The notes under the pieces: model-generated
What the model saw: only the letters and a program-made list of their open reading frames with translations
What the model was told of the DNA's origin: nothing
Databases searched by the model: none
Program-made: the position numbers and the translations under genes
Shown here: positions 8,373-25,600 of the stretch, piece after piece
How positions within the stretch are numbered: position 1 is the stretch's first letter
Layout: each line of letters begins with the position of its first letter
Source: a virus
Lineage: Duplodnaviria; Heunggongvirae; Uroviricota; Caudoviricetes
DNA: 64,000 nucleotides
IMG/VR virus record: IMGVR_UViG_2693429668_000006
Direction: 5' to 3' (one strand)

Positions 8373-8521
8373 TTTCTCACCTTTGTTTCATGAATTACCC
8401 GATACACACGCTTTCCGATGCACAGTGTTTTGGTTTTAAGTTCCTGCTTAATTAAGTCACGACAGATGCCGAAGCCGATAAGGAAACCAGCCATAAAAGC
8501 TAATGAGATGTATGGAATCAT
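8369..8521 (-). CDS. small membrane peptide (50 aa), translationally coupled
   Basis: Hand-translated MIPYISLAFMAGFLIGFGICRDLIKQ...; ATGA overlaps with both neighbours; below ORF-track size cutoff. Confidence 0.35.
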   Translation of the reverse strand: MIPYISLAFMAGFLIGFGICRDLIKQELKTKTLCIGKRVYRVIHETKVRK

Positions 8522-8733
8522 TCTAACGCTCCTGATTCTACTAATTGCTGTAGCAATACTTTCCCTTTATCAGTTAACTGGTAGTTGGCCGAGCACCACG
8601 TTTCAGAAACGTTTGCAACCAACCCTAACCGCTCTAACTTAGCCCGCGTTTTAGGCTTCCAGTACTCAGGGAACTCCGGCCACTTACTGATTTCATGAAG
8701 CGTTTCCTTCTCCCGCTTACTTAATACGATCAT
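8518..8733 (-). CDS. hypothetical small protein (71 aa)
   Basis: ORF track; coupled to neighbouring small ORFs. Confidence 0.4.
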   Translation of the reverse strand: MIVLSKREKETLHEISKWPEFPEYWKPKTRAKLERLGLVANVSETWCSANYQLTDKGKVLLQQLVESGALE

Positions 8734-8896
8734 CCTTAATCTCCTTCACTGTGTGGGTTATTTCTACAATGCGATAAATACGACCGCGTCGTTCTATAAC
8801 ACCGCTTTTAATGTAGTCATTGATGCAACTGGACATCACCACAATACCGATTAAAAAACCAACCGCTAAAAATGCAATCATCCAGCCGAGCATCAT
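8717..8896 (-). CDS. small membrane peptide (59 aa), translationally coupled to ligase gene
   Basis: Hand-translated MMLGWMIAFLAVGFLIGIVVMSSCINDY...; start overlaps ligase stop (ATGA); below ORF-track cutoff. Confidence 0.35.
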   Translation of the reverse strand: MMLGWMIAFLAVGFLIGIVVMSSCINDYIKSGVIERRGRIYRIVEITHTVKEIKDDRIK

Positions 8897-10215: not shown

Positions 10216-10682
10216 TGTTGTTTTGCCTCCATATGTTGATCGATTTGCTCATGTGTTTCTTTTGTTGTTTCTTCAATCAACGCCGCATACACGTCAGTGA
10301 TCGCTGTTTGTGATGTGGCGCTCTTCTTAACCATGCTATTAATCATTACACTGTCACGTTTTCGTTTTATAGTTCTGGCTTGTTTATTCCGTTCTTCAAC
10401 CTCCTTAATGAGTGCGGTCATATCTTCGAAATACAGAGATTCTCCTTTACGAATCTCTTCAACCATCATTTTTAACGCCTTGCATTTGCCTGCTTTAATA
10501 GCGGTTGCGCACGACTGGAAAGACGTTCGAGGAAGACGGTTTTCTTTGAAGGCAAGAATGGTGTGCTGGCAAACGGAGTAGCTGCAATATGCCGACTCAC
10601 CGTTTATCTTTACTTCCTCACAACGAAGTGAATAACCGTTATTTCCTGAAATAGAAGGGACTTTTGACAAATCAGCTTTCAC
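10212..10682 (-). CDS. hypothetical protein, Cys-rich N-terminus
   Basis: ORF track; overlaps ligase start by 4 nt. Confidence 0.4.
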   Translation of the reverse strand: MKADLSKVPSISGNNGYSLRCEEVKINGESAYCSYSVCQHTILAFKENRLPRTSFQSCATAIKAGKCKALKMMVEEIRKGESLYFEDMTALIKEVEERNKQARTIKRKRDSVMINSMVKKSATSQTAITDVYAALIEETTKETHEQIDQHMEAKQQ

Positions 10683-10749
10683 AATTACCGCCAGAAATAA
10701 TCTTGTGCTTACCTATCATTATTTGCGTAAAAAACGACACACAGAGAGC

Positions 10750-11532
10750 TTACCAACTTCCCCAGCTAATCATCTTGCGCTGATCGCTTTCTAAGCGATA
10801 GGGGGCAAGAAGCTCTGTGACATGATTGGTGGCGTATGATTTGGCCTCTTGCTCTATCATCGGTAATTCGTTAGCAATCCTGACCATCTTCCCAGCAAAT
10901 TCCGCCATTACGCCATCACACGCCTTACCCGCATCAACAATGATATGCACAAGATCCAACTGGCTTTTGCACATGTCCCAAAGAGTCGAATATTCGCTCT
11001 CCCTGATTAGGTTTACAGCATCATTAGCCCCTTTATTAATCAAAACCTCCAACAGATTTGTCGGGGTGACGAAATCGGCTTTCAGAGACAATGTTGGTTC
11101 AGCTTTTACCGACAGCAAGTAATCTTCAAAGTTTTGCTTGTCTTCCAGCAAAGCTAAACTACGCATAGCTCGAATTGATTCTCGAATAACGGCTTCAATA
11201 TGTTCGTCACCTGGAGGACAGATAATGGTATCTGTATAGATGACTCTGCCATCAAACCACGCCCCAACCTGCACTTTTAGAGTTCGTAAGTTTTCTTTGC
11301 GTACAAAAACAACTAATGCAGAACGTCGTGCATGTGCAGGTTCGCCCCATACGCACAACTTAACCTTCAGATAAGGTAGCCCCGGTAGAGGGATCTCGAC
11401 CAAACGAGTGGCGATATGATCCATTGCCGTATTGACGGCTTTTTCAATGATGTCTAGCCGATTGCTCTCGCTGATTTCTAAACCAGTTTTATCAATGATG
11501 TTGCAGGCTAATCTCTTAATTTCTTCTTTCAT
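10750..11532 (-). CDS. hypothetical protein
   Basis: ORF track, 260 aa, no recognised motif. Confidence 0.45.
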   Translation of the reverse strand: MKEEIKRLACNIIDKTGLEISESNRLDIIEKAVNTAMDHIATRLVEIPLPGLPYLKVKLCVWGEPAHARRSALVVFVRKENLRTLKVQVGAWFDGRVIYTDTIICPPGDEHIEAVIRESIRAMRSLALLEDKQNFEDYLLSVKAEPTLSLKADFVTPTNLLEVLINKGANDAVNLIRESEYSTLWDMCKSQLDLVHIIVDAGKACDGVMAEFAGKMVRIANELPMIEQEAKSYATNHVTELLAPYRLESDQRKMISWGSW

Positions 11533-11657
11533 ACCAACTCCTAGCTAACGGATGAAAGTATTCTTACAAAAACTTAAGTATGTATCTACTTATCATTTTA
11601 GGTGCAATAGTTCTTTATACTAAGATGCCGGGCATATCCTCAGCCCAGCATTCACCT

Positions 11658-12071
11658 TTAATGAGCTACAGCCTCACTGTTGCACATCTTTCTGTAGACC
11701 TGCTTATAACGCTGTAAATCATGAGGATCATTAGGTGCCAACGACTTCGATAGGATTTTGTATACCACCCCTTTTGAAAACATGCCCTTTGGCTTCATTT
11801 CGAGTTCAACAACATATGAGTGATAGCCCACGTATGCACCAAAGCCATTTTTGGCGTTTAATTCACCACACACAAAGCCTGTCACACTCCCATCATCATG
11901 ATCAGTCCTGACAAACTTATCTTTCCTAAACATCACCGACGTGGGATCTTTCATATCATCCGCAATTGCCTGTTGGCCCAGAGTAATAGCCTTCTCGTCT
12001 GTAGGCTTACACCCAACTAATGCAAACAACGACAATAAAGCACCTGTTAAAATCAACTTCTTTTTGCGCAT
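11658..12071 (-). CDS. lipoprotein
   Basis: N-terminus MRKKKLILTGALLSLFALVGC (lipobox LVGC). Confidence 0.55.
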   Translation of the reverse strand: MRKKKLILTGALLSLFALVGCKPTDEKAITLGQQAIADDMKDPTSVMFRKDKFVRTDHDDGSVTGFVCGELNAKNGFGAYVGYHSYVVELEMKPKGMFSKGVVYKILSKSLAPNDPHDLQRYKQVYRKMCNSEAVAH

Positions 12072-12298: not shown

Positions 12299-13552
12299 AT
12301 GAAACTCATAAAACCTTCATCGTTGCTGGCATTAGCTTTGCTTTTCGGCCCTGGATACGTTAACGCAGATAATAAACAAACGCTGATCGACGCCGCCACC
12401 GCAGGAGATACCACAGCACAAAGTGCGTTAGGGACAAATTATTTGGATGGGGCTAATGGCTTTGATGAGGATTTAGTAGAGGCCAAGAAGTGGATCGATC
12501 TCGCCGCAGAAAAGGGAGATAAAGTAGCATATTATGCGCTTGGGGTTATGTACACAATTGGGAAGGGAGTAGATAAAGATCTAAATAAGGCCGTTGAGTA
12601 CTACAAACTAGCAGGAAATGCTCGCAACGGCAGTGCTTACCATAATCTTGCCGTTATATACGAACGAGGTTGGACTGGAAAGGAGGACCCAGAAGCTGCT
12701 TTAAAATATCACAAACTAGCAGTAGAAGCTGGTGATATACCTTCGCTTGCCTATATGGGATATTTATATCAATACGGTAAGGGAGTTCCGAAAGATTACA
12801 AGAAAGCATTTAAATCTTATAAAAAGGCTGCGGATAGTGGAAATGCCGCAGGAATGTATGGGCTAGGCTCTATGTACGACGATGGTGTTGCTGTTAAGCG
12901 CAACAATAAAGAGGCAATTAAGTGGTACTTGAAAGCAGCTGAATTAGGAAATAATAACGCCATGAGCGCGCTTGGATACAAGTTGATGCATGGAGAAGGT
13001 ATAAAAAAAGACTATTCGAAGGCCAGAAGTCTTTTAGAACAAGCAATCAGCTTAGGAAATGATTATGCCATGAACCACCTTGGTTACATGTATCTTAAGG
13101 GATTGGGCGTCAAACAGGATTATCGGAAAGCATCAGAGCTTTACCAAGCTGCTTGCGATAAAGATGACGAAACGGGCTGCGAAAACGTTGCTGCAATGAA
13201 AGCAAAAGGTACGTTCCGTTCGCCTTCAAAACAGCAAAATGCCAAATCTGACACTCAGCGACTTATTGCTAAATCCATTGATAAAGGCGTTAACGCAACA
13301 TTTACCTGGCAGGGTGATGATGCCGTCTTCACCGCTAATGATGGCAAAGTTGACTGCACCTTCTTGAAGGATTTTTCAGAGAAAGGAGGCAATCTGGCTA
13401 CCTCGTTTGTTTGCACCGATAACGTTCAAATCATCCTGAAGCAATTCAGAGATACCAAGAATGCCTACCTCGCGGTAATGACTGACAACTTCAACACAGA
13501 AGTTAAATCATTTTCGGTCAATGTTTACGTGACTAATACTGGTTCAAACTAA
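12299..13552 (+). CDS. secreted Sel1-repeat (TPR-like) protein
   Basis: Signal peptide MKLIKPSSLLALALLFGPGYVNA; repeated A-x-Y-x-L-G-x-M-Y-x-x-G-x-G-V-x-x-D/K units typical of Sel1 repeats; plus-strand island among minus-strand genes. Confidence 0.6.
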   Translation: MKLIKPSSLLALALLFGPGYVNADNKQTLIDAATAGDTTAQSALGTNYLDGANGFDEDLVEAKKWIDLAAEKGDKVAYYALGVMYTIGKGVDKDLNKAVEYYKLAGNARNGSAYHNLAVIYERGWTGKEDPEAALKYHKLAVEAGDIPSLAYMGYLYQYGKGVPKDYKKAFKSYKKAADSGNAAGMYGLGSMYDDGVAVKRNNKEAIKWYLKAAELGNNNAMSALGYKLMHGEGIKKDYSKARSLLEQAISLGNDYAMNHLGYMYLKGLGVKQDYRKASELYQAACDKDDETGCENVAAMKAKGTFRSPSKQQNAKSDTQRLIAKSIDKGVNATFTWQGDDAVFTANDGKVDCTFLKDFSEKGGNLATSFVCTDNVQIILKQFRDTKNAYLAVMTDNFNTEVKSFSVNVYVTNTGSN

Positions 13553-14797
13553 TGCTGCTATACCTTTTACCTTGCTTAAAAGTTCAAGCTGTCGTGAGTA
13601 AGGTTTTGCGCAATAGTAGGCTTTGATAATCTGCCCCGGTGTCGCATCGCCGGGGTCGAGTCCTTCCTCGCCCAAACACGCAACTTTGACATTAAGACCA
13701 ATACTGGTCAGTCGCCTGGCTGCGGCCATCGTGTTTCGTATAGCTTGCTTTTCACTATCCCACATCATGATCACATTACGTAATCCACGCGCCTTGAGCG
13801 TCAGGAACGCGCCCAACTGATCTTCTGCATCCTGAGTGGTGTTGCCAGATAGATGCATCCCGAACGTTCCTATTGGCTCCACGTAATCACGTAATGTTTC
13901 TTCGTCGAAAATAGCTCGTTTGACCCCCATAACATCGAACGCACCCTCACAGACAACTACAGTCTGTTTGCCGACTGCATTATGGCCGTTGTAGAGAAAT
14001 TTACCTGAAGCTGGAAGCTGCATAGGAAAGAGGTAGCGGCGTTCTGCTGTACCGGTAATGTCTCGTCCCTGAAATGTCTTCATTACCCCATCCAGATCGT
14101 AAACCGGTATCAGTATTCGCATATCGAATATCTGCCCTTTTACCTGATCTGTATACGGATCTACATAAGCGTGCTTGCCTTCGACGCAGTATCGTAGGTC
14201 AAAATACTTTGCCATTTCAGGTGATATGTTTCGTTCAACCAGATAGTCTGGAAGACGGCCATCTATAGGAAGCTCGTAATGACGAGGGAGTGCAACTGGC
14301 CCCTCTAACTCGACTGTGCTTGCAAGCACTAGCTCTTCTTTCTTTGGTGTCCACCCCTGGGAAAGAAGAGCGTTCTGCACATATTCCTCGAACTGTCGTC
14401 GTGATTTACCGCTGTAGTGCTTGAGGAAGACCAGCTTATTGAACTGAATCTCTTCGGGATGATCACCAGCGAAGCATTTGCCGACGCCACTGGTCAGATT
14501 GAAATATACCTTCCAGTTGGAGCTGCCGCATACCGGACACTCTTTGATATTCACTTCACGACCGCGAGCACTCACGCCTCCACGTCGATAAACGATACCT
14601 TCAGTATCCAACCATTGTTCAAAATCTAATTCGGCAATTAGCTCTTTCAGCTCGCTCACGATAATTCCACTTTTAACAGGCAATATTGTGACCAACCTAA
14701 ATGTTGATATAACATAAAGGCTCATGTGTTTTTCTTTTGTGGTTTGGCAAAAGAAAAGTTGTTTCACCAATGAATCAAGCGTGGAGGTGTTCTCCAC
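13544..14797 (-). CDS. DnaG-like DNA primase (zinc ribbon + TOPRIM)
   Basis: CPVCGSS...GKCFAG zinc-binding motif and TOPRIM-like VVVCEGAFDVMG; start position uncertain. Confidence 0.6.
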   Translation of the reverse strand: MENTSTLDSLVKQLFFCQTTKEKHMSLYVISTFRLVTILPVKSGIIVSELKELIAELDFEQWLDTEGIVYRRGGVSARGREVNIKECPVCGSSNWKVYFNLTSGVGKCFAGDHPEEIQFNKLVFLKHYSGKSRRQFEEYVQNALLSQGWTPKKEELVLASTVELEGPVALPRHYELPIDGRLPDYLVERNISPEMAKYFDLRYCVEGKHAYVDPYTDQVKGQIFDMRILIPVYDLDGVMKTFQGRDITGTAERRYLFPMQLPASGKFLYNGHNAVGKQTVVVCEGAFDVMGVKRAIFDEETLRDYVEPIGTFGMHLSGNTTQDAEDQLGAFLTLKARGLRNVIMMWDSEKQAIRNTMAAARRLTSIGLNVKVACLGEEGLDPGDATPGQIIKAYYCAKPYSRQLELLSKVKGIAALV

Positions 14798-14806
14798 GCT
14801 TATTTT

Positions 14807-16147
14807 TTAGGTAACGTCTAAGATTCGCTCAATGAAGCGCATTTGTTCGAGGTTTTGTTTAACGCGAATGCTGATCCCTCCCTGCTGGTTACGTGAACCG
14901 GCAAAGTAGAGACGAGCCTCTCCTTTCGCTTCTTCTTCTTCGGTTTTGTTGATCGTTATTACCAGGTCAGCAATACGTACTTTTTCGATGTTGTCGGCAG
15001 CGTGCATCATTGTGGCAACTTCTGACGCGCCACCTTCACGGTTTGTCTGCGATGCCGTGATCCCAGCAACGTTATGCTTGTCATAAAGAGCACGTAAATC
15101 GGTGTAGATACTACGAATGTTGGCGCGATCATCACGAAGGTCATAACTGGCACGCATCAAATCTGCGTAGTCGACAACAACCATGTCAGGCACCATGCCG
15201 TTGGCTTTCATGCTGTTAAGCATACGGTCCAGATCTGCCGGTGACATACTTCCTGACGGACGCTCAACAACCCACAAACTACCAATCCCCTTAGAGGCTC
15301 CCAACTCTGCCAACTTACGATGAACTTCATCGCGCCGTTCCACCAACTTGGACATTTCCGTCTCCGACAATCTTGCATCAAAACGGTCGGACAAAATGTT
15401 GGTGTGAACCTCCAGCGAGAGATACAGAACATTGTAGCCAGCAAGCGTTGCGTTTATGGAAAACTCGCCCATTGCGGTCGATTTACCGGATTTAGCGAAC
15501 CCCATGAAGAGCACCATTTCGCGCTTTGCCCAGCCTTTTTGGTACAGCAACCTATCGAGAAGAGGGAGTCCAGTTGTAATACTGTTTGGTACATACTCCT
15601 CTGAAGCCTCATATTCACGCGCTTTCAATCGCTCACTTGCGGAGGTGTAGTAGTCATAGATTCCGGTCGCTTCGTTCGATCCAATCTGCTGAACCTTGGC
15701 CATGATTGCCATCGCCCCCTGAAAGTCGCCCTTCTCTTTCAGTTCAGCAGCCTTAATCAGAGCATCATCAAACGCTACGCTTTTTGCGAAGGTTGATACC
15801 TGGTCAACCATGTACGAGGTATCGGACAATTTTTCTGCAAGGATGCGCTTAAACGCAACAACAACATCGGCGAATAGTTCCTCACGGATAGTCTTATCGC
15901 GTTTCGCACGCTTAAGCATATCCAGAATTGCAGATGAAGAGGGCGCGCTCTTGTACATACGGTAATAGCCCGAAACCATATTAACCAATATGGCATTGGC
16001 CGCATTGGCAAATTGGCTAGGCACAACCAGATCTCCCGCACGAGTAAGAAACTCGTGATCACGACAAAAATATGCCGTCAGTCTGTTCTGGAAATCTTCA
16101 TCAAACTCTTCGGACAGCCCGCGTCCTGTATGGCAAAGTTCGGTCAT
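14807..16147 (-). CDS. DnaB-family replicative helicase
   Basis: Walker A GFAKSGKST, Walker B VVVDYADLM, RecA-like C-terminal domain. Confidence 0.7.
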   Translation of the reverse strand: MTELCHTGRGLSEEFDEDFQNRLTAYFCRDHEFLTRAGDLVVPSQFANAANAILVNMVSGYYRMYKSAPSSSAILDMLKRAKRDKTIREELFADVVVAFKRILAEKLSDTSYMVDQVSTFAKSVAFDDALIKAAELKEKGDFQGAMAIMAKVQQIGSNEATGIYDYYTSASERLKAREYEASEEYVPNSITTGLPLLDRLLYQKGWAKREMVLFMGFAKSGKSTAMGEFSINATLAGYNVLYLSLEVHTNILSDRFDARLSETEMSKLVERRDEVHRKLAELGASKGIGSLWVVERPSGSMSPADLDRMLNSMKANGMVPDMVVVDYADLMRASYDLRDDRANIRSIYTDLRALYDKHNVAGITASQTNREGGASEVATMMHAADNIEKVRIADLVITINKTEEEEAKGEARLYFAGSRNQQGGISIRVKQNLEQMRFIERILDVT

Positions 16148-16166
16148 GTGCTTTCCTTTGTTTTTT

Positions 16167-16182
16167 AAACAAATTGTTTTCT
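16167..16182. promoter_or_regulatory. operator-like palindrome AAACAAATTGTTTTCT upstream of helicase gene
   Basis: Member of recurring AACAAnTTGTT motif family. Confidence 0.4.
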
Positions 16183-16190
16183 AGTATTAG

Positions 16191-16940
16191 TTAATTAGAT
16201 AGGGGATCAATAAACCGCCGTGCTTCTTCCAGTTCTTCTGGAAAGTGGGCGGAAATAAGGCGCTCTGGAACGATTTCCATTAGCCAGATAGCGGAGAAAA
16301 TTGCGCGTATGCGCTTACTGCGAGGGATGGTGCGCAAACGCTCCAGAATCCACTCAAAATAGCTTTCCTGAATCGGGTTGAACTGCATGTCTCCCATATG
16401 CTTAAAGCTAACCAGAGAGTCATCCAGACGGGTTGTTGCGCGTCTGGCTAATTTCTCTTCAAATATCTCAATCAGTTCTGGCTGCCACAAATGCTGTGGG
16501 CGAGGCAGCTTGTCCCACAGACGTCGTGCAGCTGCGGAAAGAACAGTGGAGATAAAGTAGTCGTATGAGCAGCAATAGCGATCCGCAAACTGGCGTGCTT
16601 TCCATAGCGACGTTTTATTAGCAGTCGACAACTCCTGATAAGGCAAGCGTTTTAACCCGGTGGTGAACGGAGCTGTTTCAAAGTGTTCACGACCGTGCGT
16701 CAGCATGATATTTGAGTACTGACGTTTGTATGCCTCCGTAAACAGACAGGTGGCCATGAGAGGATGCATATCGCGGTAATCAAACCACTTCGTCTCAAAC
16801 AGTTCAGCCTCGTCTTTGCAGCGCGACAAACCAATGTTTTCAGCAACCCACTTGTCCATAACAGCGGTATTCCACTCTGTCATGAAGTCGTACTGGTCGT
16901 TGTCGATGGTATCGAAAAAGATTTGGCTCATGTGGCTCAC
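16191..16940 (-). CDS. hypothetical protein (replication region)
   Basis: ORF track, 249 aa. Confidence 0.45.
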   Translation of the reverse strand: MSHMSQIFFDTIDNDQYDFMTEWNTAVMDKWVAENIGLSRCKDEAELFETKWFDYRDMHPLMATCLFTEAYKRQYSNIMLTHGREHFETAPFTTGLKRLPYQELSTANKTSLWKARQFADRYCCSYDYFISTVLSAAARRLWDKLPRPQHLWQPELIEIFEEKLARRATTRLDDSLVSFKHMGDMQFNPIQESYFEWILERLRTIPRSKRIRAIFSAIWLMEIVPERLISAHFPEELEEARRFIDPLSN

Positions 16941-17045
16941 CTGGTAGGTAGTTACTTACTTATCACAATGAGCGGATGATAGCGACTGGTGGCAGTTTTT
17001 GGAAGTGGAAACGGAAGGGACTTGTTCTGGTGGGTGTCTTTAAAA

Positions 17046-17104
17046 GACCTGCTTCTGTATATACAAATAATAAGTAACTTATTAAATACATACGGAAGCA
17101 GGTC
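17046..17104. repeat. 59 bp imperfect palindrome with AT-rich core TAATAAGTAACTTATTA
   Basis: Arms GACCTGCTTCTGTAT / ATACGGAAGCAGGTC; related copy at 49164..49218. Confidence 0.55.
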
Positions 17105-17112
17105 ATAATCTA

Positions 17113-18819
17113 TTAATGATTGAGTATTTTATTAACACGCAGCTTATTAAGTGTTGATTTTGAAGCAACTTCCTCCAAAGCTTCTATTGCTTTATCAGTG
17201 ATGCTCTTCTGTTCGTCTGTCGGGTGTTGCATACCCTTGAACTTGAGCATAGTCTCTTCTACTAAATTCAAAGCATCCTGATCACAGGATAATATCCAGT
17301 TTACGTAATCATCTTTAGAAAAACTGTTAAGAATATTCACATCACTATGGTTAAATCTTCCACCAGCTATTTTTTTTATAATTTTATCTAAGTTATAGTC
17401 ATCTGGATTTCTATCTTTCAATTTTTTTTCAATTCTGAAACCTAATTCTTCATTTCCGAAGATCTCTACTCGCAAAGAATTAAATGTAGCATACGCATTG
17501 TCTTTATTAACAAAAGCATCTGCATATGCCTCTATAATATTATTACAATCTCTATCCAATTTGATTAGGACATTTATTAAACCTACGAACTGTCCAATTG
17601 GTATACGCAACAGACTATCGTTAATTACGCGCTCAATTTGAAAAATAAACTCTGATTCATTATCTTTAAAAGAGTTTCTAAAAACATCCCAAATTTTATA
17701 AACCTCACATAAAACCCTATTATCTCTATATTGTTCATTTTTTTCTTTTATTATATTTAGAATATTGCTTTCAGAAGACACATAACCGTTCTTAAGGTAA
17801 AAATCTATATCATCATCGAAAGCACTTTCTGCTCGTTCATAAATAATATCAAGGCTATTAACAAATGAATATACAGAGTTAACTTCTTCCTTTTCATCTT
17901 TATCATCTAACATATAGTCGAATGCATGTATATTTTTGATTGACTCCTTAAATGAAGCATAATCAACGCTAGGAACACCAAAATAGTAAACCACTGAAAA
18001 TAAGACCAATCTATTAATAAAACTTTCTCTAACCTTATCCTCTGCTAACTTTAGCACATCTCTAAATATAACTAGAGATGATTTTATTTTATTTAATATT
18101 CTAATGTTTTTGATGTTTAAATCATTTGCTAGGTTTTTTAACAAAAGAAAATCAGGGTCAGTCTCATAAAAAACTTTTCTTAAGTTTTTCTCAGGCGTGG
18201 GATCGTATTTTATTTCCACATCAATTATTTTTTCTCTATACTCTAAAAACTGTTGTTGTGCAGTTTCTTCATGTAAGTTATCTTCATTTAATATTAGAAC
18301 AACCTTGCAATTTTTTCTTCTTGCCAACTCATCAATTACCCCCATAATCTCTTTAATTTCTAGCGCACTACCTTTTCGTTCAATATCATCAATGCAAACC
18401 AAATAATTATTAACAAATTTATACTCAAGAGATGACAGCAGATTATCAGTTTTGAACCCAAAAAAATCGTTCTTTCCAAAATGTATTAAAAATTTTGACA
18501 AGGAGTTGTATTTCAACCATCCCCAAAACCCATTTCTATAACGAATCATAGTTCGATCCGTTTCAGATAAAATCAGTTCTTTATATTTCTTTTCATTAAT
18601 TGGTGTGGCACAATGATAAAGAGCTTTTTTAATGTCTCCAATAGAATTTATTCCAAACAAAGAAACATATGAATATGCATTAAAATCTAATTTTTTAGAA
18701 TGTTTAGTATAAAAGCTATTCCAATAATGCGTTTTACCTACTCCCCAATTTCCTTTTATGACAGCAACCCGATGATCTGAGTCCAAAAAATTTTTTAAAA
18801 ATACTTCTATCGATTCCAT
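17113..18819 (-). CDS. KAP-family P-loop NTPase (candidate defence or abortive-infection protein)
   Basis: N-terminal Walker A KGNWGVGKTHYW matches KAP signature GxWGxGK[ST]; 568 aa; strongly AT-rich relative to neighbours. Confidence 0.55.
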   Translation of the reverse strand: MESIEVFLKNFLDSDHRVAVIKGNWGVGKTHYWNSFYTKHSKKLDFNAYSYVSLFGINSIGDIKKALYHCATPINEKKYKELILSETDRTMIRYRNGFWGWLKYNSLSKFLIHFGKNDFFGFKTDNLLSSLEYKFVNNYLVCIDDIERKGSALEIKEIMGVIDELARRKNCKVVLILNEDNLHEETAQQQFLEYREKIIDVEIKYDPTPEKNLRKVFYETDPDFLLLKNLANDLNIKNIRILNKIKSSLVIFRDVLKLAEDKVRESFINRLVLFSVVYYFGVPSVDYASFKESIKNIHAFDYMLDDKDEKEEVNSVYSFVNSLDIIYERAESAFDDDIDFYLKNGYVSSESNILNIIKEKNEQYRDNRVLCEVYKIWDVFRNSFKDNESEFIFQIERVINDSLLRIPIGQFVGLINVLIKLDRDCNNIIEAYADAFVNKDNAYATFNSLRVEIFGNEELGFRIEKKLKDRNPDDYNLDKIIKKIAGGRFNHSDVNILNSFSKDDYVNWILSCDQDALNLVEETMLKFKGMQHPTDEQKSITDKAIEALEEVASKSTLNKLRVNKILNH

Positions 18820-18870
18820 TGGTGTCTATCCTTCAACTCATATATTGGGCGTAACAAACGCCCAATATAA

Positions 18871-19230
18871 TCACCCTTTCTTCATCAACTCGCGTTTAAT
18901 TTCATCGGTACGCATCGTGACATCGGCAGCTGTGATCGCCTCGTTAAGTTTCACGATGTCCTCGATTTCCTGCGGTGTCTTCTCCGCAAGATGGAAAATA
19001 GCAGCACGAATCACGTCAGAACGAGTGAACTTCTCGAAGCGAGGGATGAACTTCATCATCTCCAGCAGTTCGAAGTATTCGTCCTCCAGTGACATTGTGC
19101 GGCTTTTAATTTTCTCTTTGCCACGAGTCGGGCGTCCCTGTGGTCTGACTGGTTGGCGCAAAGGAGTTGTGTTCTTAGCCGGTGCATCAGGCTCTTTGCG
19201 CTTTGCTAGGTCACCCATTTTCATGGACAT
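18871..19230 (-). CDS. small partition protein (ParG-like ribbon-helix-helix centromere-binding protein)
   Basis: 119 aa, immediately downstream of ParA with overlapping start/stop; RHH-like C-terminal segment. Confidence 0.45.
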   Translation of the reverse strand: MSMKMGDLAKRKEPDAPAKNTTPLRQPVRPQGRPTRGKEKIKSRTMSLEDEYFELLEMMKFIPRFEKFTRSDVIRAAIFHLAEKTPQEIEDIVKLNEAITAADVTMRTDEIKRELMKKG

Positions 19231-19898
19231 TATTCTTCTTCCTCCAGACTCAACAGATAATCTACAAATTCTTCAAACTCGGCTTCCGCCTTTTTGTCGC
19301 GCTCGCTACCGGTCATTTCAAAGATAGAACGACCAGACTCTTCCGCATCATCATAGACGTTGCGGTTATATAGATTGACTGGCGCAGACTCGATGCCAAA
19401 CGTCTCAACAATCTCTTTAGCCGCCAGAATGCGAGACACTTGTGATGGCAAAGCCGGGCACTGGTTCATGACCGCGCGGACCTTCACTTTATCGTTTACA
19501 TTACGAACATTGTCGATAATAGGATCGATGTCACGCAGAGATTTCAAATCACGACGCTTAGGACGAAGCGGGATAATGATAACGTCGGCCATCAGCATCG
19601 CTTGTCGCTGAATTTCGGAGTCAAAGCCACCAGCATCTACCACTACAAACTCAGCTCTACCCTGAAGCGATTTTAGGTGCTTAATGATGTCATCCTGAAC
19701 GTATGCAAAAGGAATCAGCTCAAGGTCTTCGTTCTGTCGACGGTCTTCACACCAGCTTGTTGTCGTGCGCTGAATATCTATATCAGTGATATAAACCTTC
19801 TTCTTCTTTTTGACTTTCAGGCAAACGGCAATTTGCTGGGCAACGGTGGATTTGCCAGGCCCGCCCTTTGTGCCGCCAACCACAAAGATCTTGGTCAT
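19230..19898 (-). CDS. ParA-family partition ATPase
   Basis: Deviant Walker A VVGGTKGGPGKST at N-terminus; 222 aa. Confidence 0.75.
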   Translation of the reverse strand: MTKIFVVGGTKGGPGKSTVAQQIAVCLKVKKKKKVYITDIDIQRTTTSWCEDRRQNEDLELIPFAYVQDDIIKHLKSLQGRAEFVVVDAGGFDSEIQRQAMLMADVIIIPLRPKRRDLKSLRDIDPIIDNVRNVNDKVKVRAVMNQCPALPSQVSRILAAKEIVETFGIESAPVNLYNRNVYDDAEESGRSIFEMTGSERDKKAEAEFEEFVDYLLSLEEEE

Positions 19899-19933
19899 TG
19901 GAGAGTTCCCTTTGCGTCTATTATTATCGTCTG

Positions 19934-19950
19934 AAACAACTTGTTTTCTT
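19934..19950. promoter_or_regulatory. operator-like palindrome AAACAACTTGTTTTCTT upstream of parA
   Basis: Recurring AACAAnTTGTT motif; adjacent palindromes GTACGGTGATATGCCGTAC and GGCTATAGCC in the 19898..20178 intergenic region. Confidence 0.4.
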
Positions 19951-20216
19951 ATATGTGATATAGCCTAAATGCCTACGGCTACGGTGTAAAGGTTAAATGG
20001 TAGGTTGTGGTTAACAATTGGCAATCATAGCTTGTATTTGTCTGTTGAAAAAAGTAACAATGACCTCTATATTACAAGTACGGTGATATGCCGTACACAA
20101 TTTGATAATGCACACGTAATGGGCTATAGCCTTTTAAAGTAATTTTTGAGTCGAAAACTCAGTTTGAACAGAGGAGATTGATGGCCTTCCTACATCACGG
20201 CCATCAGGAGGAATAC

Positions 20217-20486
20217 ATGTCAGCACTAAAAAAGCAGCGCATCGATTTGAGATTAACCGATGACGATAAAAGCATCATCGAGGAAGCTGCCGCAATGTCT
20301 AACCAGAGCATTACTCAGTTTATGGTTAGCAGTGCATCTGAACGTGCCGTGAAAGTTATAGAGCAACACCGTAGACTAGTTCTGAATGAAGAATCCTGGA
20401 ATCTGGTTATGGACGCTATAAGCAATCCTCCGGCACCGAACGACAAGCTGAAACGAGCTGCTGATCGTCTGAAAAGCATGGAGTAG
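20217..20486 (+). CDS. DUF1778 / TacA-like antitoxin
   Basis: 89 aa, MSALKKQRIDLRLTDDDKSIIEEAAAM...NPPAPNDKL; SD AGGAGG before ATG at 20217; immediately upstream of GNAT gene. Confidence 0.65.
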   Translation: MSALKKQRIDLRLTDDDKSIIEEAAAMSNQSITQFMVSSASERAVKVIEQHRRLVLNEESWNLVMDAISNPPAPNDKLKRAADRLKSME

Positions 20487-20493
20487 TTTACTC

Positions 20494-21015
20494 GTGAGCA
20501 ATACAACGATAGAGATTTTCTCTGGAGAGAAAGATTATGATCTAAACGGTTTTGATTGCGGCGAAGAGTCACTAAACGCCTTTTTAGCCAACCACTTAAA
20601 AAGGCAGCATGAGGGAAAAATTCTTCGTGCTTATGTGCTTTGCACTCAAGAAGAAAGGCCAAAAGTGTTAGGATATTACACTTTGTCAGGTAGTTGTTTT
20701 GAAAAGGAGTCCTTACCTTCAAGAAGCAAACAAAAGAAGGTTCCTTATCGGAATGTTCCAAGTGTTACTTTGGGTAGGCTGGCTTTGGACAAGTCCCTTC
20801 AAGGTCAAGGATTTGGCTCAATGCTTGTAACACATGCAATGCGCGTTGTGTACAATGCATCTCTTGCTGTAGGCATTCATGGACTTTTCGTTGAGGCGTT
20901 AAATGACAAAGCCAAGGCGTTTTATAAAAGTTTAGGCTTTATCCAGCTGGTTGGTAACAACGAGCGTTCTTTGTTCTATCCTACAAAATCTATCGAAAAA
21001 TTGTTCGAAGAATAA
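20494..21015 (+). CDS. GNAT-family acetyltransferase toxin (TacT/AtaT-like)
   Basis: 173 aa GNAT fold with ...LQGQGFGSMLV... acetyl-CoA motif; paired with DUF1778 gene; GTG start. Confidence 0.65.
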   Translation: MSNTTIEIFSGEKDYDLNGFDCGEESLNAFLANHLKRQHEGKILRAYVLCTQEERPKVLGYYTLSGSCFEKESLPSRSKQKKVPYRNVPSVTLGRLALDKSLQGQGFGSMLVTHAMRVVYNASLAVGIHGLFVEALNDKAKAFYKSLGFIQLVGNNERSLFYPTKSIEKLFEE

Positions 21016-21047
21016 TGTGTTCCCCTCATTTGAGGGGAACTTCGACA

Positions 21048-21233
21048 TCACCAACCACAAACCCTCTCTCCCATCGTATTGTGAAAAAGGATTTGGCGTT
21101 CGGTTTCTTCAGTCATTACATCATTATTGCTGATATAGATAGGCTCAGCCCCATCGCAGAACAACACGCTGGCTGTTTGTGGTTTAATGACGCACCCACT
21201 TATCATACAACTCACGATGAACGGCAGAAGCAT
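21048..21233 (-). CDS. possible o-spanin (Rz1-like lipoprotein) overlapping 3' end of i-spanin-like gene
   Basis: Lipobox-like CMISGC; out-of-frame overlap with 21184..21435; weak, not proline-rich. Confidence 0.3.
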   Translation of the reverse strand: MLLPFIVSCMISGCVIKPQTASVLFCDGAEPIYISNNDVMTEETERQILFHNTMGERVCGW

Positions 21234-21435
21234 CTTTCTGACGTATTTTACTGCTCGTCTCATTCACCACTTTCACTGTGTTTTGAAGTCGTTTTCTGTC
21301 TTCCTGTTTTGCCTTCTCTTCCATTGCTCGTCGCGCCGCATTCCCGCCCATCGTGTAAGCGCCGACAAGAACGAAAAGAACGGCAGCCAGCGTAATCAAA
21401 GCAACTTTTAGCTTTGTCATCAGGCTGCCTAGCAT
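21184..21435 (-). CDS. possible i-spanin (Rz-like)
   Basis: N-terminal TM anchor LKVALITLAAVLFVLVGAY followed by charged coiled-coil-like region. Confidence 0.35.
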   Translation of the reverse strand: MLGSLMTKLKVALITLAAVLFVLVGAYTMGGNAARRAMEEKAKQEDRKRLQNTVKVVNETSSKIRQKDASAVHRELYDKWVRH

Positions 21436-21436
21436 A

Positions 21437-22156
21437 TTAGACCATCCCTTTCTGGTGTTTTCTTACCTGCGACCAGGCAATGAATCCTGCCACAACAATA
21501 GTGGCAATACCGAAGATGATGCGTACTGTATCCCCGCTAGAGATATGACCTTGTGCTTTATCCATAGCAGCGGAAACCTGCGGCATAACATCGGCCAGCT
21601 GCGCCAGACCAATACCTGCTGTAACAGTTGCGCCTGCGGTTTCTTTAGTTACAGGAACAGCCTTCACGGTTTTCACCGGCTTAACAACGCCAGCTCGACG
21701 CAGACCTTCCTCAATAACTTCTGCCGCATACCAGGTGTTCAGCGTTTTTAGCGGGCCTCGGCCATTCTCGTGGCGAATGATTGCCTCAACCAAAGGTCGA
21801 AGGATGTCGTAATCATGCAGATCGATGATCATGTCTGCGGTTACACCAACGGCTTTAGACACCTCATTAATGTAGGCGTCAGTATTGTTTTCATTCGGCG
21901 GTGCCCAGCGTTCAATAACTTCACGAATGGTATCGATACTTGTGCCGTCTTTTGCGCGACGTTTATCGTGGTAGGTAATTAGAGTCACCGCCAGCGCACG
22001 AATCCCCCAAACAGGGTCTTTAAACGTGCAAAAGCGCGGTTCGTCTGGATTCGCAACCAGACCTTGCCACGGTGATCCTTTATCAAGATTACCGGGGTTA
22101 TTATTACGAATGCCTCTCGGAGTCTTCATCCTTGATCTCCTGTTATTGCAGTCCAT
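21437..22156 (-). CDS. putative peptidoglycan hydrolase / endolysin with C-terminal TM segment
   Basis: Position in lysis-like cassette; conserved-looking GIRNNNPGNL motif; C-terminal hydrophobic stretch; assignment uncertain. Confidence 0.35.
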   Translation of the reverse strand: MDCNNRRSRMKTPRGIRNNNPGNLDKGSPWQGLVANPDEPRFCTFKDPVWGIRALAVTLITYHDKRRAKDGTSIDTIREVIERWAPPNENNTDAYINEVSKAVGVTADMIIDLHDYDILRPLVEAIIRHENGRGPLKTLNTWYAAEVIEEGLRRAGVVKPVKTVKAVPVTKETAGATVTAGIGLAQLADVMPQVSAAMDKAQGHISSGDTVRIIFGIATIVVAGFIAWSQVRKHQKGMV

Positions 22157-22669: not shown

Positions 22670-25600
22670 TCAGTTACTTGTTGCCCCAACAGTACCTGCA
22701 AATTTCAGCCATTGACCTGACGGACTTCTATTACTACGGTAGTGATAAACGAGGATTGCGTTTGTAATCCCACCATAGTCAGCTTTGTGTGACGTCGTTA
22801 AACGAATTGTATAATCACCGTTAGGTAGATTAAAAACTTCGATTATAGATTCTGCTAATTCTACAGCACCAAATCCCGTTATATTGTTGATACTGCCAGC
22901 ATTGAATCCCATAGCATCGCCAAAGCCAATCCAATAACTTTTGCTAAACGCCCCATTTGATTTTAGGTGGCTAATGAATGCGGACAAGCTCATGCCCATA
23001 TCCCCACCTGAAACAGAGGAAGTTCGCACAGTCATACTTGGAAGAGCACTGCTCTTCACATAGGAACTTAGAAGGTTTGTTACCTCTGTTTTCGTGTAAG
23101 CATTAAGGTTAGCCGCAGTCAAAGTTATATCGGCAGAGCCATCAAACGCCACACCAGCAATTTTCCTTGCTGTCTGCAATTTTGTGGCGGTTGCGGCATT
23201 ACCAGTAGTGTTCTGGTTCCCATCTGCATTCACACCTGGAATGCTGTCTTTTTTAGTATATATCTGAGTCCAGTCCTCTTCGAACCCATAGCCATCACGT
23301 GATGAACGGTAATACAATCCACCATTTTTATAATGCGCTCGGATTTGGAGAGTCCGACAACTACCTACGCCTATATAAAAATTTGCAACGATATAAGAAT
23401 CCCCGGAGCGTGTAACATTATACGCACCTGATTCGGCATTCCACGGGACCGCACCACTAGCATCGGCATAAGTTCCAGTAGCGCGTCGAGCAAAAGCAGA
23501 TACATTTGCAGCTGTTAGTGTTATATCAGCAGAACCATCAAAAGACACGCCGCTTATTTTTCTAGCAGTTTGCAACTTCGTAGCTGTTGAAGCATTACCG
23601 TTCAAACTACCATTTACGCCACCAGTAACATTTAGTCCATTACCAATGGACACAGCACCGCTGGTATTATTAATTGTAATAGGTCGCAAACCGTTCCATG
23701 AACCTAATGTGTCTCCTGATGCTGTTAGCATGAAATATGTGTTCGATCCATCATTACGGATAAAGAACCCAAAGCTACCGTAAGCAATGCGGAAACCATT
23801 TGCATATTTTGAAACGATCTCACCAGAAGACGTTAATCCGCCAGTTAACGCTCCTCCAGATAGTGGTAAAGCTCCGACATCAGCCGCAGTAGGCTTGTTT
23901 TTAGTGTTATACGCTCTGCGCCATCCTGGTGAATAGCTCGTCCCGTTAAATACATAGATAAACTCCGCATTAGTGAGAGCACCAGAGACACTCGCCGTTG
24001 TGGCCGTTGTTATACGGATCGTATAATTGTTTGAGCTACTACCGTTATTAAATACCTCTATAACAGCTCCTGCTAATGGAATAACGCCACAACCAGTTTC
24101 ACTATTTGGTATGGTTGCACTATTGGCATAGGCCCACGCACATCGAGCAATCCATGACTTTGTGTTAAATGCTCCATTATTTTGCAATAACGTCACTAAC
24201 TGTGCTGTTGTTATTGCTCCGCCATTACTTCCTGTAGTTAACCAACCAGTAGGAGATGCCGGGCAACCTATATTTGCTGGCGACAAGGAAATATTTGCCG
24301 AGCCGTCAAACGACACCCCATTGATAGTACGCGCAGTCTGCAACTTCGTAGCAGTAGCCGCGTTGCCCGTTGTATTCTGATTACCAGTCGTATTAACACC
24401 TGGCAAATTAATATTCGCAGTACCATCAAAGCTCACGCCGCCGATAGTTCTTGCCGTCTGAAGTTTTGTAGCAGTTGCAGCATTACCAGTGGTGTTCTGA
24501 TTACCCGTAGTGTTTACACCTGGAAGGTTAATATTTGCAGAACCGTCGAAAACAACTCCACCGATAGATCTTGCCGTCTGCAATTTCGTGGCTGTACTTG
24601 CATTACCATTCAATGAACCAGTTAATCCACCTGTAACAGACAACGGACCTGAAACTGTTCCTCCGGTTGTTGGCAGTGCTCCAATATCTGATGGTGTAGG
24701 TTTCTGATGTGAGCTATACATCGTATAAACAACACCATCGGTAACGCTGGAAGGCTTACTCGCTGAATATGTTGGCGAGGTATAAATAGAAACTGTCGCA
24801 TTTGCAGTACAATCCCAATGGATATTTACACGAGTCGCATAATTGCCAATCTCAACGTAAATATCATATGTATCGCCGGATGTGTTGATCCAGGCGAAAT
24901 TCGTTAATCCGACAGCTGTACGCTTCCACAAAGCACCTGTAATCCCTTTGGGGTTTCCATTGCCTGCTCGTAGAACCAGTTCTGAAATGCCTGCCTGATG
25001 TGGGGAGCCGACGTTGTAACCAGCGCCACCAATCAATGCGATGTAAACGATGGAACTCGCTTGTGGCATGGTAACCGTAGCCAGTTTGAACCACCCTGCC
25101 CCGCCAGAGAAAGACATCGTTACTGAATTTAAAGTACCAATATCTTTCGGCGTTAATGTGATATCCGCAGTCAGTGCTTTACCGTTAACTTTTCGGTTAG
25201 ATGGCACCCTGCTATTCGCATTGTCATTGGCTGCTTTAACTGCTTTTGGCGTTGCGGCCAGCGATTCACTGGTGCTGTCGACAGCACTGCTAAGTTTCAC
25301 AACACCTTTAGTTGTAAGGCTTGCGTCTTCCATCGCAACTGCACCGGCAATCTCTTCAGCACGATCAGCAGCAGCTTCCGCACGGGTCGCAGCGGATTCA
25401 GCAGCAGTTTTGCTCTGAGATGCTGCCGTCGCACTGCCTGCCGCCTCTGTTGCTTTCGTGGATGCCGTCGTGGCACTGCCCTTCGCTGCTGACGCCTGTC
25501 TGGTCGCCTCATCTTTTGAAGCAGACGCAGATGATGCCGATGACGCCGCCGAACTGGCGGACGATGCGGCAGCCGTTTTTGAGGATTCTGCGCTGGTTTC

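Follow-up and report, generated by a model that had tools for sequence, protein, structure and literature searches.

SSU5-like phage-plasmids are common in clinical Enterobacteriaceae. The 64-kb stretch of DNA analysed here (64,000 nt, referred to as the window) is an E. coli SSU5-like temperate phage-plasmid in which a KAP-type NTPase gene stands between the partition and the replication genes, all on the same strand. A preliminary description of the locus had read this placement correctly and had taken the gene for a horizontally acquired candidate defence module. The question is what a gene of this kind does at such a position. The locus comprises the following features.

19230..19898, minus strand: parA, whose product matches MipZ/AAA_31/CbiA/ParA
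18871..19230, minus strand: parB-like gene, 119 aa, whose product matches phrog_5111
17110..18869, no strand: exchangeable cassette of 1760 bp, from the loss of homology to the LF82 plasmid and SSU5
18841..18869, minus strand: cassette-specific GC-cored hairpin directly 3' of the parB-like stop codon, from its arms and fold
18829..18834, minus strand: Shine-Dalgarno-like GAAGGA, 9 nt 5' of the ATG, read from the sequence
17113..18819, minus strand: KAP-family P-loop NTPase gene, the single-gene payload of the cassette, from the ORF list, Pfam, PDC-S49 and phrog_4740
17046..17104, minus strand: backbone palindrome followed by TTTT on the minus strand, from RNA folding and conservation across slot variants
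13544..16940, minus strand: downstream replication module with a 249-aa conserved gene, DnaB-like helicase and primase, from the ORF list and the annotations of the near-identical plasmid pGMI17-003_2

A KAP-type NTPase gene of foreign composition

The ORF list of the window contains the expected minus-strand ORF at 17113..18819, and residues 22-33 of its 568-aa product are KGNWGVGKTHYW, the Walker A signature on which the preliminary description was built. The Pfam family anticipated there, KAP_NTPase (PF07693), scored 26 bits against a gathering cut-off of 20 (E=6.6e-6), with residues 18-258 of the protein aligned to positions 22-282 of the 293 in the profile; nearly all of the homologues listed carry a precomputed PF07693 assignment. 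The protein matched phrog_4740 over its full length (E=2e-165), and an NCBIfam search gave no meaningful match. In an alignment of 65 homologues, G23, W25, G26, G28, K29 and T30 of Walker A and Y139, C142, D144, D145, E147 and R148 of Walker B were invariant, and the family consensus motifs GxxGxGK[ST] and hhhhDD[hx][DE]R correspond to GNWGVGKT and YLVCIDDIER in this protein, the latter being co-linear with the motif FIVVMDDLDR of PifA. The Walker A, Walker B, sensor and arginine residues of the NTPase core are all intact and family-invariant. Sequence comparison therefore supports the assignment of the product as a KAP-type P-loop NTPase.

The gene is compositionally foreign, as had been noticed at the outset. 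Its GC content is 29.5% (GC3 23.9%) compared with 47-50% in parA, the parB-like gene, the 249-aa gene, the helicase and the primase, and it forms the lowest-GC 1707-bp stretch of the whole window (mean 45.6%, sd 4.1). Asn, Lys and Ile together make up 27.6% of its residues, against 14-20% in the neighbouring gene products. At such a GC content, silencing of the gene by H-NS is conceivable.

The predicted structure of the protein divides it into two domains, which together with the catalytic motifs map to the gene as follows.

18046..18819, minus strand: N-terminal NTPase domain, about aa 1-258, AAA+/STAND-like alpha/beta, from the AF2 model, Foldseek and invariant residues
18730..18753, minus strand: Walker A motif GNWGVGKT, aa 23-30, from invariance in 65 homologues
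18376..18405, minus strand: Walker B region YLVCIDDIER, aa 139-148, from invariance in 65 homologues and the PifA alignment
17116..18045, minus strand: C-terminal all-helical solenoid-like domain, aa 259-568, hypervariable, putative sensor

In the AF2 model (pLDDT 86), the strands of the N-terminal domain lie at residues 18-22, 48-53, 139-144, 172-177 and 201-204, and its best Foldseek matches in the PDB were RFC, ORC/Cdc6, STAND, Avs4, RdrA, McrB, TnsC and MuB, all at low TM-scores of 0.20-0.27. The C-terminal half matched generic solenoids only, which rules out an enzymatic C-terminal effector as far as the fold search reaches; a profile of the 65 homologues searched against all PDB sequences returned nothing at E up to 1. 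No transmembrane helix was found, the highest 19-residue Kyte-Doolittle mean being 1.6 at a non-conserved position, and hydropathy therefore rules out a transmembrane KAP or Tmn-like protein. Residues 99-123, where KAP proteins usually hold a transmembrane insert, are disordered in the model. Transmembrane helices accompany the NTPase in many KAP members. Their absence is no bar to membership, since PifA is likewise devoid of them (10.64898/2026.03.01.708804). The protein is thus modelled as a soluble one, composed of an AAA+/STAND-like NTPase and an all-helical solenoid without an enzymatic fold. This two-domain architecture is constant and carries no extra effector, and the full-length form is kept in more than 1200 clusters at 50% identity.

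An exchangeable slot between the partition and replication genes

In relatives that carry other genes at this position (the LF82 plasmid and SSU5), blastn homology stops at 17109 and restarts at 18870, which defines 17110..18869 as the exchanged cassette. A hidden partner ORF was rejected because the cassette has just 51 bp before the KAP ORF and 3 bp after it; antisense ORFs of 53-73 aa fall inside the KAP gene. The KAP gene was also found as a single gene with no conserved partner in all 11 contexts inspected, so its description as solitary stands.

The two inverted repeats that had been taken to bracket the gene are both real, but they are of different kinds. The palindrome at 17046..17104 folds as RNA at -28.3 kcal/mol (z -6.35), and none of 200 shuffles was as stable. 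It is imperfect, its outer arms of 18 nt being 89% complementary, with further pairing inside them, and it belongs to the conserved backbone rather than to the acquired DNA: it is kept in the LF82, SSU5, Klebsiella, Salmonella and pJN2-26 variants regardless of the slot gene, and a near-identical second copy lies at 49162..49220. Its presence in every slot variant, and in two copies within the window, led to its rejection as a mark of insertion. It is likely to be the intrinsic terminator that closes the par-slot unit, which still leaves room for a protein-binding role. The hairpin on the other side spans 18841..18869, slightly more than the originally proposed 18844..18866, with perfect 12-nt arms around a 5-nt loop, and a folding energy of -17.9 kcal/mol (z -5.4). 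A hairpin stands at this site in all slot variants, each time with a different sequence, and we regard the one here as putatively attenuating or terminating transcription of the par operon. Within 16000..21500, no Rfam family came close to its gathering score.

A native promoter within the cassette, assumed in the preliminary description, was not found: the promoter scan detected no sigma-70-like site between the parB-like stop codon and the KAP ATG, and the only promoter-like sites that it placed on the minus strand lie upstream of parA. The parA and parB-like genes are the probable source of read-through transcription into the KAP gene. The moron footprint ascribed to the gene consequently holds in part, since the foreign composition and the position between conserved genes are present, but the terminator is that of the backbone and an own promoter-like site was not found.

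The slot between parA/parB-like and the replication genes has flanks that are 97-98% identical and accommodates at least five cargo types, namely KAP, a DUF2971/PDC-S31 gene, a PD-T4-3 homologue, a 357-aa gene and a pair of 136- and 214-aa genes. In pRM9975-1 the slot holds a GIY-YIG gene that matches PD-T4-3 (E=1e-23), a single-gene defence with experimental activity (bioRxiv 10.1101/2024.12.20.629700) that has been reported in SSU5-group phage-plasmids (bioRxiv 10.1101/2025.09.12.675607). The DUF2971 gene of the LF82/Cyrano/SSU5 slot is the PADLOC candidate PDC-S31 (E=1e-40), the 357-aa gene of pERB3f3 is unclassified, as is the gene pair in SSU5 and Citrobacter, and an IS3 insertion was also met among the slot variants. 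Constant flanks around alternating, unrelated cargo that includes a known defence gene mark the slot as a hotspot. As outlined in PMC10879196, which cites Rousset et al. 2022, the hotspots of P2/P4-type phages and satellites likewise have a fixed position between conserved genes and hold unrelated, often AT-rich single-gene defence cargo that alternates among near-identical elements; the present slot differs in lying between parAB and the replication module of SSU5-like phage-plasmids, a location for which we found no description in the literature searched.

Nor is the KAP gene a one-off insertion. Divergent alleles occupy the same slot at 77%, 42% and 39% identity across E. coli, Salmonella and Klebsiella elements, those of the Klebsiella and Salmonella SSU5-like elements being 39-42% identical, so that the gene is retained at this position in three genera. 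Near-identical E. coli backbones carry one or the other of two diverged alleles; our guess is that the 564-aa allele is tied to the S. sonnei pWPMR2 element. Comparison with the second E. coli allele gives the KAP gene a dS of 0.29-0.98 and a dN/dS of 0.09-0.28, while dS in the flanks is 0.04-0.125. The gene is under purifying selection along its whole length, and the divergence is concentrated in the C-terminal half, the solenoid being the fast-diverging part.

The gene occurs in 28 of 5426 complete E. coli genomes, and 126 KAP-positive records compare with 718 backbone matches, about 85% of the backbone-matching plasmids having no KAP gene. Some plasmid copies are broken (the multi-piece matches H62, H85 and H86), which indicates that the gene is dispensable. 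Homologues elsewhere often sit in prophage moron sites: in three Pseudomonas prophages the homologue adjoins an S24 repressor gene, in Shewanella it lies next to an OLD-family nuclease, and in Oleispira it lies within an IS66/T5orf172 islet. Several chromosomal homologues are found among housekeeping genes without a defence neighbour. Every homologue measured has a GC content 6-19 points below that of its own flanks.

Relation to known defence NTPases

Among the PADLOC models, those of PDC-S49 matched the protein, with PDLC05031 as the best profile (E=2e-21) and two further PDC-S49 models also matching, and no model of any other system matched at E up to 1. Like the KAP protein of the phage-plasmid, PDC-S49 is a single-gene P-loop NTPase of about 570-620 aa. 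In this match residues 3-347 align with positions 8-346 of the 624 in the profile, which amounts to its N-terminal 55% and leaves the C-terminal solenoid outside. The PADLOC PDCs are 145 guilt-by-embedding candidates whose status comes from genomic association only (bioRxiv 10.1101/2024.01.29.577857), and two other PDCs gave no phenotype in an assay (bioRxiv 10.1101/2024.12.20.629700). The literature searched, including supplementary files of the PDC paper, does not mention PDC-S49 by name.

The founding member of the KAP family, PifA of plasmid F, excludes phage T7. Both PifA and the present protein match Pfam KAP_NTPase and possess a long non-catalytic C-terminal region, and both genes lie in a plasmid replication/partition/addiction neighbourhood, pifA adjoining ccdAB/repE/sopAB on F and the KAP gene adjoining parAB and a TacA/TacT-type toxin-antitoxin pair. 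Yet the alignment is confined to the NTPase cores and is weak there, with 23% over 245 aa in BLASTP (E=0.14) and an hhalign probability of 45%; PifA has 741 aa instead of 568, and the C-terminal regions are unrelated. The upstream genes here are parA and the parB-like gene, with no pifC-like repressor gene. This core-only match and the lack of a pifC-pifA operon rule out a PifA orthologue. A 2025 preprint further proposes that phage restriction may not be the primary function of PifA (PMC12632615).

A further likeness, by description, is to EF_KAP and its relatives of Enterococcus and lactic acid bacteria, which are single genes linked to mobile elements and encode a KAP NTPase followed by about 300 aa without a known domain (PMC12632615). 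In E. faecalis, such single-gene KAP NTPases, whose C-terminal regions are uncharacterised, confer a defence that requires Walker B and is not abortive (PMC12632615). They differ in that EF_KAP has two N-terminal transmembrane helices, whereas the phage-plasmid KAP has none, and in residing in serine-recombinase islands of other hosts instead of a phage-plasmid slot (PMC12632615). Since PifA and the Enterococcus KAPs are already described, single-gene KAP defence is not new as a kind, and the statement in the preliminary description that it is uncharacterised is outdated, the more so as the family is catalogued as a PADLOC candidate.

Three other relatives were considered. Tmn is also a single-gene P-loop NTPase, a known defence where the present gene is a candidate, which senses a phage protein and raises ATP turnover (10.64898/2026.03.01.708804); it belongs to the distinct YobI family, with two transmembrane helices inserted in the P-loop domain, and membership was ruled out since the present protein has no transmembrane segment and matches no Tmn model in PADLOC. 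QatA, also of the KAP family, assembles into 7-8-mers and binds DNA (PMC13279940), but it acts in a four-gene operon with QatB, QatC and QatD; the single-ORF cassette and the lack of qatB, a QueC-like qatC or a TatD-like qatD in the 11 contexts rule out QatABCD. STAND/Avs-type sensors share the layout of a P-loop NTPase followed by a helical-repeat arm, and the fold matches include a STAND protein and Avs4, although at TM-scores of 0.20-0.23 and with no N-terminal effector domain here. The nSTAND3 profile scored 19.6 bits against a cut-off of 27.2, and the protein was not assigned to that class.

Proposed function and alternatives

The PDC-S49 match, together with the PD-T4-3 homologue and the PDC-S31 gene in the slot of relatives, bears out the proposal of a defence candidate, and from its sequence the KAP gene is a credible one, of a kind already catalogued. 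We consider it fairly probable that it encodes a lysogen-expressed single-gene anti-phage NTPase, carried as the payload of the swappable SSU5-like slot. Read-through from the parAB promoter would transcribe the gene at a low level during plasmid-prophage carriage, and the NTPase would shield the lysogen, hence the phage-plasmid, from other phages or mobile elements. The solenoid would recognise a phage-derived protein or nucleic acid, and the NTPase, like its AAA+/STAND/KAP relatives, would respond by assembling into an oligomer that depends on ATP. The protein carries no fused nuclease, pore, TIR or comparable domain, so the assembly itself would be the effector, most plausibly by loading on or sequestering phage DNA or a replication or packaging protein and so blocking phage development; draining of ATP or a PifA-like membrane perturbation would be less likely modes. 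Since the protein has no recognisable effector domain, this killing or blocking step is purely inferred.

Other functions have to be weighed against anti-phage defence. An inter-element competition or addiction module, which excludes rival SSU5-like phage-plasmids or plasmids or acts as a selfish stabiliser of its carrier, would suit the plasmid-maintenance surroundings, with parAB and the TacA/TacT-type pair here and ccdAB/repE/sopAB beside pifA on F. It would also accord with the circulation of two diverged alleles among near-identical E. coli backbones and with the doubt about the primary function of PifA (PMC12632615). We think it unlikely, as the single ORF of the cassette has no antitoxin-like partner, plasmid competition has no bearing on the homologues that stand alone in chromosomes or lie in integrated prophages, and the alternative occupants of the slot are phage-defence genes or candidates. 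Still less likely is a functionless passenger in E. coli, an AT-rich acquired gene that is silenced (for example by H-NS) and hitch-hikes in a recombination-prone slot. The 29.5% GC, the missing promoter-like site, the fragmented copies and the rarity of the gene (28/5426) fit such a passenger, but purifying selection acts on the whole gene at dS up to 0.98, catalytic residues are invariant in the 65 homologues, the full-length architecture persists in the more than 1200 clusters, and the same slot retains the gene in three genera.

A housekeeping AAA+ factor, such as a helicase loader, initiator accessory or partition adaptor working with the DnaB-like helicase or ParA, is suggested by the same-strand position between partition and replication genes and by the best solved-structure matches, since ORC/Cdc6, RFC, MuB and TnsC are DNA-loading AAA+ proteins. 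Those TM-scores are low (0.20-0.27), though, the gene is foreign in composition, homologues occur without a helicase or par neighbour, and the roughly 85% of backbone-matching plasmids without KAP persist with GIY-YIG, DUF2971 or unclassified genes instead, which makes this role very improbable. We give hardly any credence to a counter-defence NTPase that disarms a host immune system during infection or carriage. SSU5-group phage-plasmids do carry anti-defence genes such as Rad (bioRxiv 10.1101/2025.09.12.675607), and phage accessory slots can house cargo of either type. Yet the profile matches are to defence candidates and none to anti-defence families, lone chromosomal copies and repressor-adjacent prophage positions better fit lysogen-expressed defence, and the experimentally studied KAP/YobI NTPases considered here, PifA, the Enterococcus KAPs, QatA and Tmn, all act in defence (PMC12632615; 10.64898/2026.03.01.708804).

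A wider form of the anti-phage reading, which we hold tentatively and think doubtful as a whole, joins a soluble effector-less KAP protein, its solenoid as phage sensor and its oligomer as effector with a slot that is an undescribed defence hotspot containing new systems. The oligomer would then, for example, clamp phage DNA or a replication or packaging factor, or burn ATP, which would set this mode of immunity apart from those that use nuclease, pore or NADase effectors. The new systems would be the 357-aa gene of pERB3f3 and, in SSU5 and Citrobacter, the 136+214-aa pair. Phage-plasmid clades in which DefenseFinder scores no defence, perhaps the S. sonnei pWPMR2-like lineage among them, would through this slot be armed after all.

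Irrespective of what KAP does, the slot that the parB-like stop codon and the conserved terminator delimit offers a practical starting point in the search for further single-gene defences. If KAP blocks phages, it would provide a first function for a large family of more than 1200 clusters at 50% identity and a membrane-free, effector-less example in the little-understood KAP branch of immune NTPases, and it would shape the phage susceptibility of the carrier lineages and the design of phage therapy against them.

The phage-plasmid and its exchangeable cassette

The window was identified as an E. coli phage-plasmid of the SSU5-like group. Over a 4-kb region it shares 100% identity with plasmid pTIC (MF554642.1) and 99.5% with pGMI17-003_2, and the backbone matches 718 plasmids in PLSDB (Klebsiella, Escherichia, Enterobacter, Salmonella and others) as well as phages SSU5 and Cyrano, the latter being the LF82 plasmid. 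The 568-aa ORF of the preliminary description (17113..18819) was confirmed on the minus strand, where the gene order is parA, a 119-aa parB-like gene, a hairpin, the KAP gene, a palindrome, a conserved 249-aa gene, the DnaB-like helicase and primase. Calculation bore out the AT-richness ascribed to it: the gene has 29.5% GC (GC3 23.9%), every neighbour has 47-50%, and it is the lowest-GC 1707-bp stretch in the whole window (mean 45.6%). Asn, Lys and Ile, likewise described as abundant, make up 27.6% of its residues versus 14-20% in the flanking proteins. Compared with relatives carrying another gene at this position, homology extends up to 17109 and resumes from 18870; the exchangeable cassette is therefore 17110..18869 and consists of the hairpin, a GAAGGA ribosome-binding site and the single ORF. 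The structures and nearby genes concerned are as follows.

17046..17104, palindrome: outer arms of 18 nt with 89% complementarity, and further pairing inside them; -28.3 kcal/mol, z -6.35
18841..18869, hairpin: perfect 12-nt arms; -17.9 kcal/mol, z -5.4
49162..49220, second palindrome copy: near-identical, inverted orientation
48415..49047, minus strand: DNA-binding small-terminase-like gene, downstream of the second copy
47159..48415, minus strand: large terminase, beside the small-terminase-like gene

The palindrome and hairpin that had been said to bracket the KAP gene are both real, being far stabler than shuffled controls, but only the hairpin belongs to the cassette. The palindrome, with the TTTT after it on the minus strand, is kept in LF82, SSU5, pJN2-26 and elements of Klebsiella and Salmonella, irrespective of the gene in front of it. 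Its second copy is found in the gap immediately upstream of the terminase genes; compared with the first copy, the arms show 1-2 mismatches in 18 and the central TTTAATAAGTTACTTATTATTT is identical. It is thus a backbone element. Its reading as an insertion scar was rejected, as it lies outside the cassette, is conserved across slot variants and is duplicated in the window. Most simply it is a terminator; the two copies may represent a repeated terminator or a putative protein-binding site (pac- or centromere-like). Also upstream of the terminase region are two ABC-transporter ATP-binding-like genes (49519..51071, minus strand; phrog_886, phrog_293).

Immediately behind the parB-like stop codon, every slot variant has a GC-cored hairpin with a different sequence each time, which argues for a structural role, possibly attenuation of read-through from the par operon. 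Because no sigma-70-like site was found between this stop codon and the KAP ATG, the gene is presumably expressed through read-through that starts at the par promoter, and hence during plasmid-prophage carriage.

Contents of the slot and other variable positions

The cargo survey drew on how far two-piece matches span and on three retrieved examples, and revealed at least five kinds of cargo between flanks of 97-98% identity.

Genes found in the slot
KAP gene: this window and relatives; matches PADLOC PDC-S49
251-aa DUF2971 protein: LF82/Cyrano and SSU5; PADLOC candidate PDC-S31, E=1e-40
255-aa GIY-YIG protein: pRM9975-1 (L018:1415-2182, plus strand, opposite to KAP); PD-T4-3, E=1e-23
357-aa candidate protein: pERB3f3 (L017:1407-2480, plus strand, opposite to KAP); no Pfam or PADLOC match
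136-aa and 214-aa gene pair: SSU5 genes 036/035 (L003:5998-7042, minus strand) and a Citrobacter plasmid (L019:1360-2404, minus strand)

In SSU5, pJN2-26 and the Citrobacter plasmid the conserved pair stands beside the DUF2971 gene or in its place, and a family search with it returned no match except a sub-threshold MFS hit. One record has an IS3 insertion in the slot. PD-T4-3 is experimentally active as a single-gene defence (bioRxiv 10.1101/2024.12.20.629700) and was reported in SSU5-group phage-plasmids in a DefenseFinder survey (bioRxiv 10.1101/2025.09.12.675607). With alternating cargo that includes a homologue of this system, the par-rep slot behaves as a defence hotspot.

Other parts of the window also vary or stand out in composition. 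Just upstream of parA, 20178..21015 (plus strand) encodes a toxin-antitoxin pair of TacA (DUF1778, E=9e-26) and a TacT-like GNAT acetyltransferase; two unrelated hypothetical genes are found here in pGMI17-003_2, and aac(6')-Ib-cr in pTIC, and the position resembles a further variable slot, across the par operon from the first. Low GC (32.7%) also marks a second AT-rich patch, at 4237..5565 (plus strand). It holds an ORF of 442 aa with a hydrophobic segment at its N-terminus, which gave no Pfam or PADLOC match and adjoins a tyrosine integrase (2538..3641, minus strand) and a small glutaredoxin-like ORF; this may be one more site for accessory or defence cargo. At 12299..13552 (plus strand, opposite to the replication genes) the window encodes a secreted-looking protein of 417 aa with seven Sel1 repeats, a position filled by other genes in SSU5 and LF82. 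The 1341-aa tail-fibre gene (22670..26695, minus strand) contains repeated 'NASTATKLQTAR' collar-like motifs and a long Ala/Ser-rich low-complexity tract, which accounts for the GC 0.57 patch at 25001..26000.

Conservation and divergence of the KAP protein

The predicted KAP homology was recovered by Pfam (KAP_NTPase, 26 bits, gathering score 20), and residues 22-33, which contain the Walker A motif, read KGNWGVGKTHYW. In PADLOC the protein matches only PDC-S49 (E=2e-21), covering the N-terminal 55% of the profile, and in PHROGs it matches phrog_4740 full-length, which has no function annotated. The family is therefore already catalogued, under these two names and the annotation 'P-loop NTPase fold protein'. 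Among 65 full-length homologues (28-77% identity), the invariant residues are G23, W25, G26, G28, K29, T30, D144, D145, E147, R148, Y194, R195, E196, K197, D200, N238, R240 and K244, to which the C-terminal half adds only G345, W508 and R561. N178, nearly invariant (at least 90% of sequences), is likely a sensor residue. No transmembrane segment was found in the protein. A profile search with the C-terminal domain gave 1674 representatives at 50% identity (1209 with E<=1e-10); among the top 150 matches, complete proteins were all 540-600 aa long, each had the domain following an N-terminal KAP region, and none had an extra fused effector.

The KAP gene in this slot is no isolated case. Another E. 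coli/Shigella allele, of 564 aa (77% identity) and seen on more than 900 contigs, occupies the same slot, and Salmonella (42%) and Klebsiella (39%) alleles occupy it in their own SSU5-like elements. The family is carried by 126 PLSDB plasmids (Klebsiella 75, E. coli 21) and 28 of 5426 complete E. coli genomes, plasmid-borne in all. The 564-aa allele (P0007, P0013, P0014, P0021, P0027; plasmid CP022461.1) occurs very commonly among Shigella sonnei assemblies, with P0007 by itself in 928 contigs. For the pWPMR2-like phage-plasmid clade of S. sonnei, the DefenseFinder survey reported no defence system (bioRxiv 10.1101/2025.09.12.675607); this clade may carry the KAP candidate, which would then have escaped that survey. 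Three copies from E. coli and Klebsiella, H62 (NZ_CP053233.1), H85 (CP109700.1) and H86 (CP109716.1), align in 2-4 pieces, are annotated as several ORFs and appear pseudogenised.

The two E. coli alleles are 97-99% identical in nucleotides over part of the NTPase region but only 68-74% at the 3' end, and their proteins are 93-100% identical over aa 1-160 but 50-57% over aa 360-568. dS is 0.29-0.98 inside the gene and 0.04-0.125 in flanking genes, with dN/dS of 0.09-0.28. These patterns indicate that the alleles are older than the backbones and were swapped by recombination, and that they are functional, with divergence mainly in the C-terminal half.

Homologues elsewhere had no conserved neighbour in the contexts examined, and in every context their GC was 6-19 points below the flanks. 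Three Pseudomonas prophages (L007, L022, L024) at different chromosomal sites carry one (28-31% identity; ~8001..9740 or 10001..11740) at the same moron position, between the early-left operon and the S24 CI-like repressor. In Shewanella an OLD-family nuclease lies two small ORFs away, in Oleispira the homologue sits in an IS66/T5orf172 islet, and the copies of Pragia, Vreelandella and one metagenomic scaffold stand alone amid housekeeping or unknown genes.

A candidate anti-phage NTPase and its rivals

The best-supported reading, which we consider reasonably probable, is that the KAP gene encodes a lysogen-expressed single-gene anti-phage (or anti-mobile-element) NTPase and travels as exchangeable cargo in a phage-plasmid hotspot. 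In the proposed mechanism, a phage component would be sensed by the variable solenoid, and the invariant NTPase would switch or oligomerise; as no effector is fused, the assembly itself might block phage development, e.g. through engagement of DNA or a replication/packaging factor. Alternatives are ATP depletion or PifA-like membrane effects. Precedents support this putative mechanism. Single-gene KAP defences are already known: E. faecalis is defended by KAP NTPases with unknown C-terminal regions, Walker-B-dependent and non-abortive (PMC12632615). The KAP protein QatA binds DNA and forms 7-8-mers (PMC13279940), Tmn raises ATP turnover upon sensing a phage protein, and PifA of F, a KAP protein without transmembrane helices, aborts T7 infection (10.64898/2026.03.01.708804). 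PifA, which adjoins ccdAB/repE/sopAB on F, resembles the window protein weakly and in the core only. PADLOC PDCs are candidates predicted by guilt-by-embedding (bioRxiv 10.1101/2024.01.29.577857), and two others were inactive on testing (bioRxiv 10.1101/2024.12.20.629700).

A role in inter-element competition or addiction is unlikely, though it ranks highest among the rivals. That the gene is a silent passenger is more doubtful still, given the purifying selection on it. A housekeeping role in replication or partition is very improbable because most relatives lack the gene, and a counter-defence factor, for which no positive support was found, is the least probable of all.

Beyond the preliminary description, the analysis fixes the exact cassette boundaries, reassigns the palindrome to the backbone and resolves the divergence of the alleles by domain. 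It also places the KAP gene in a par-rep slot that behaves as a defence hotspot and houses a validated system as well.
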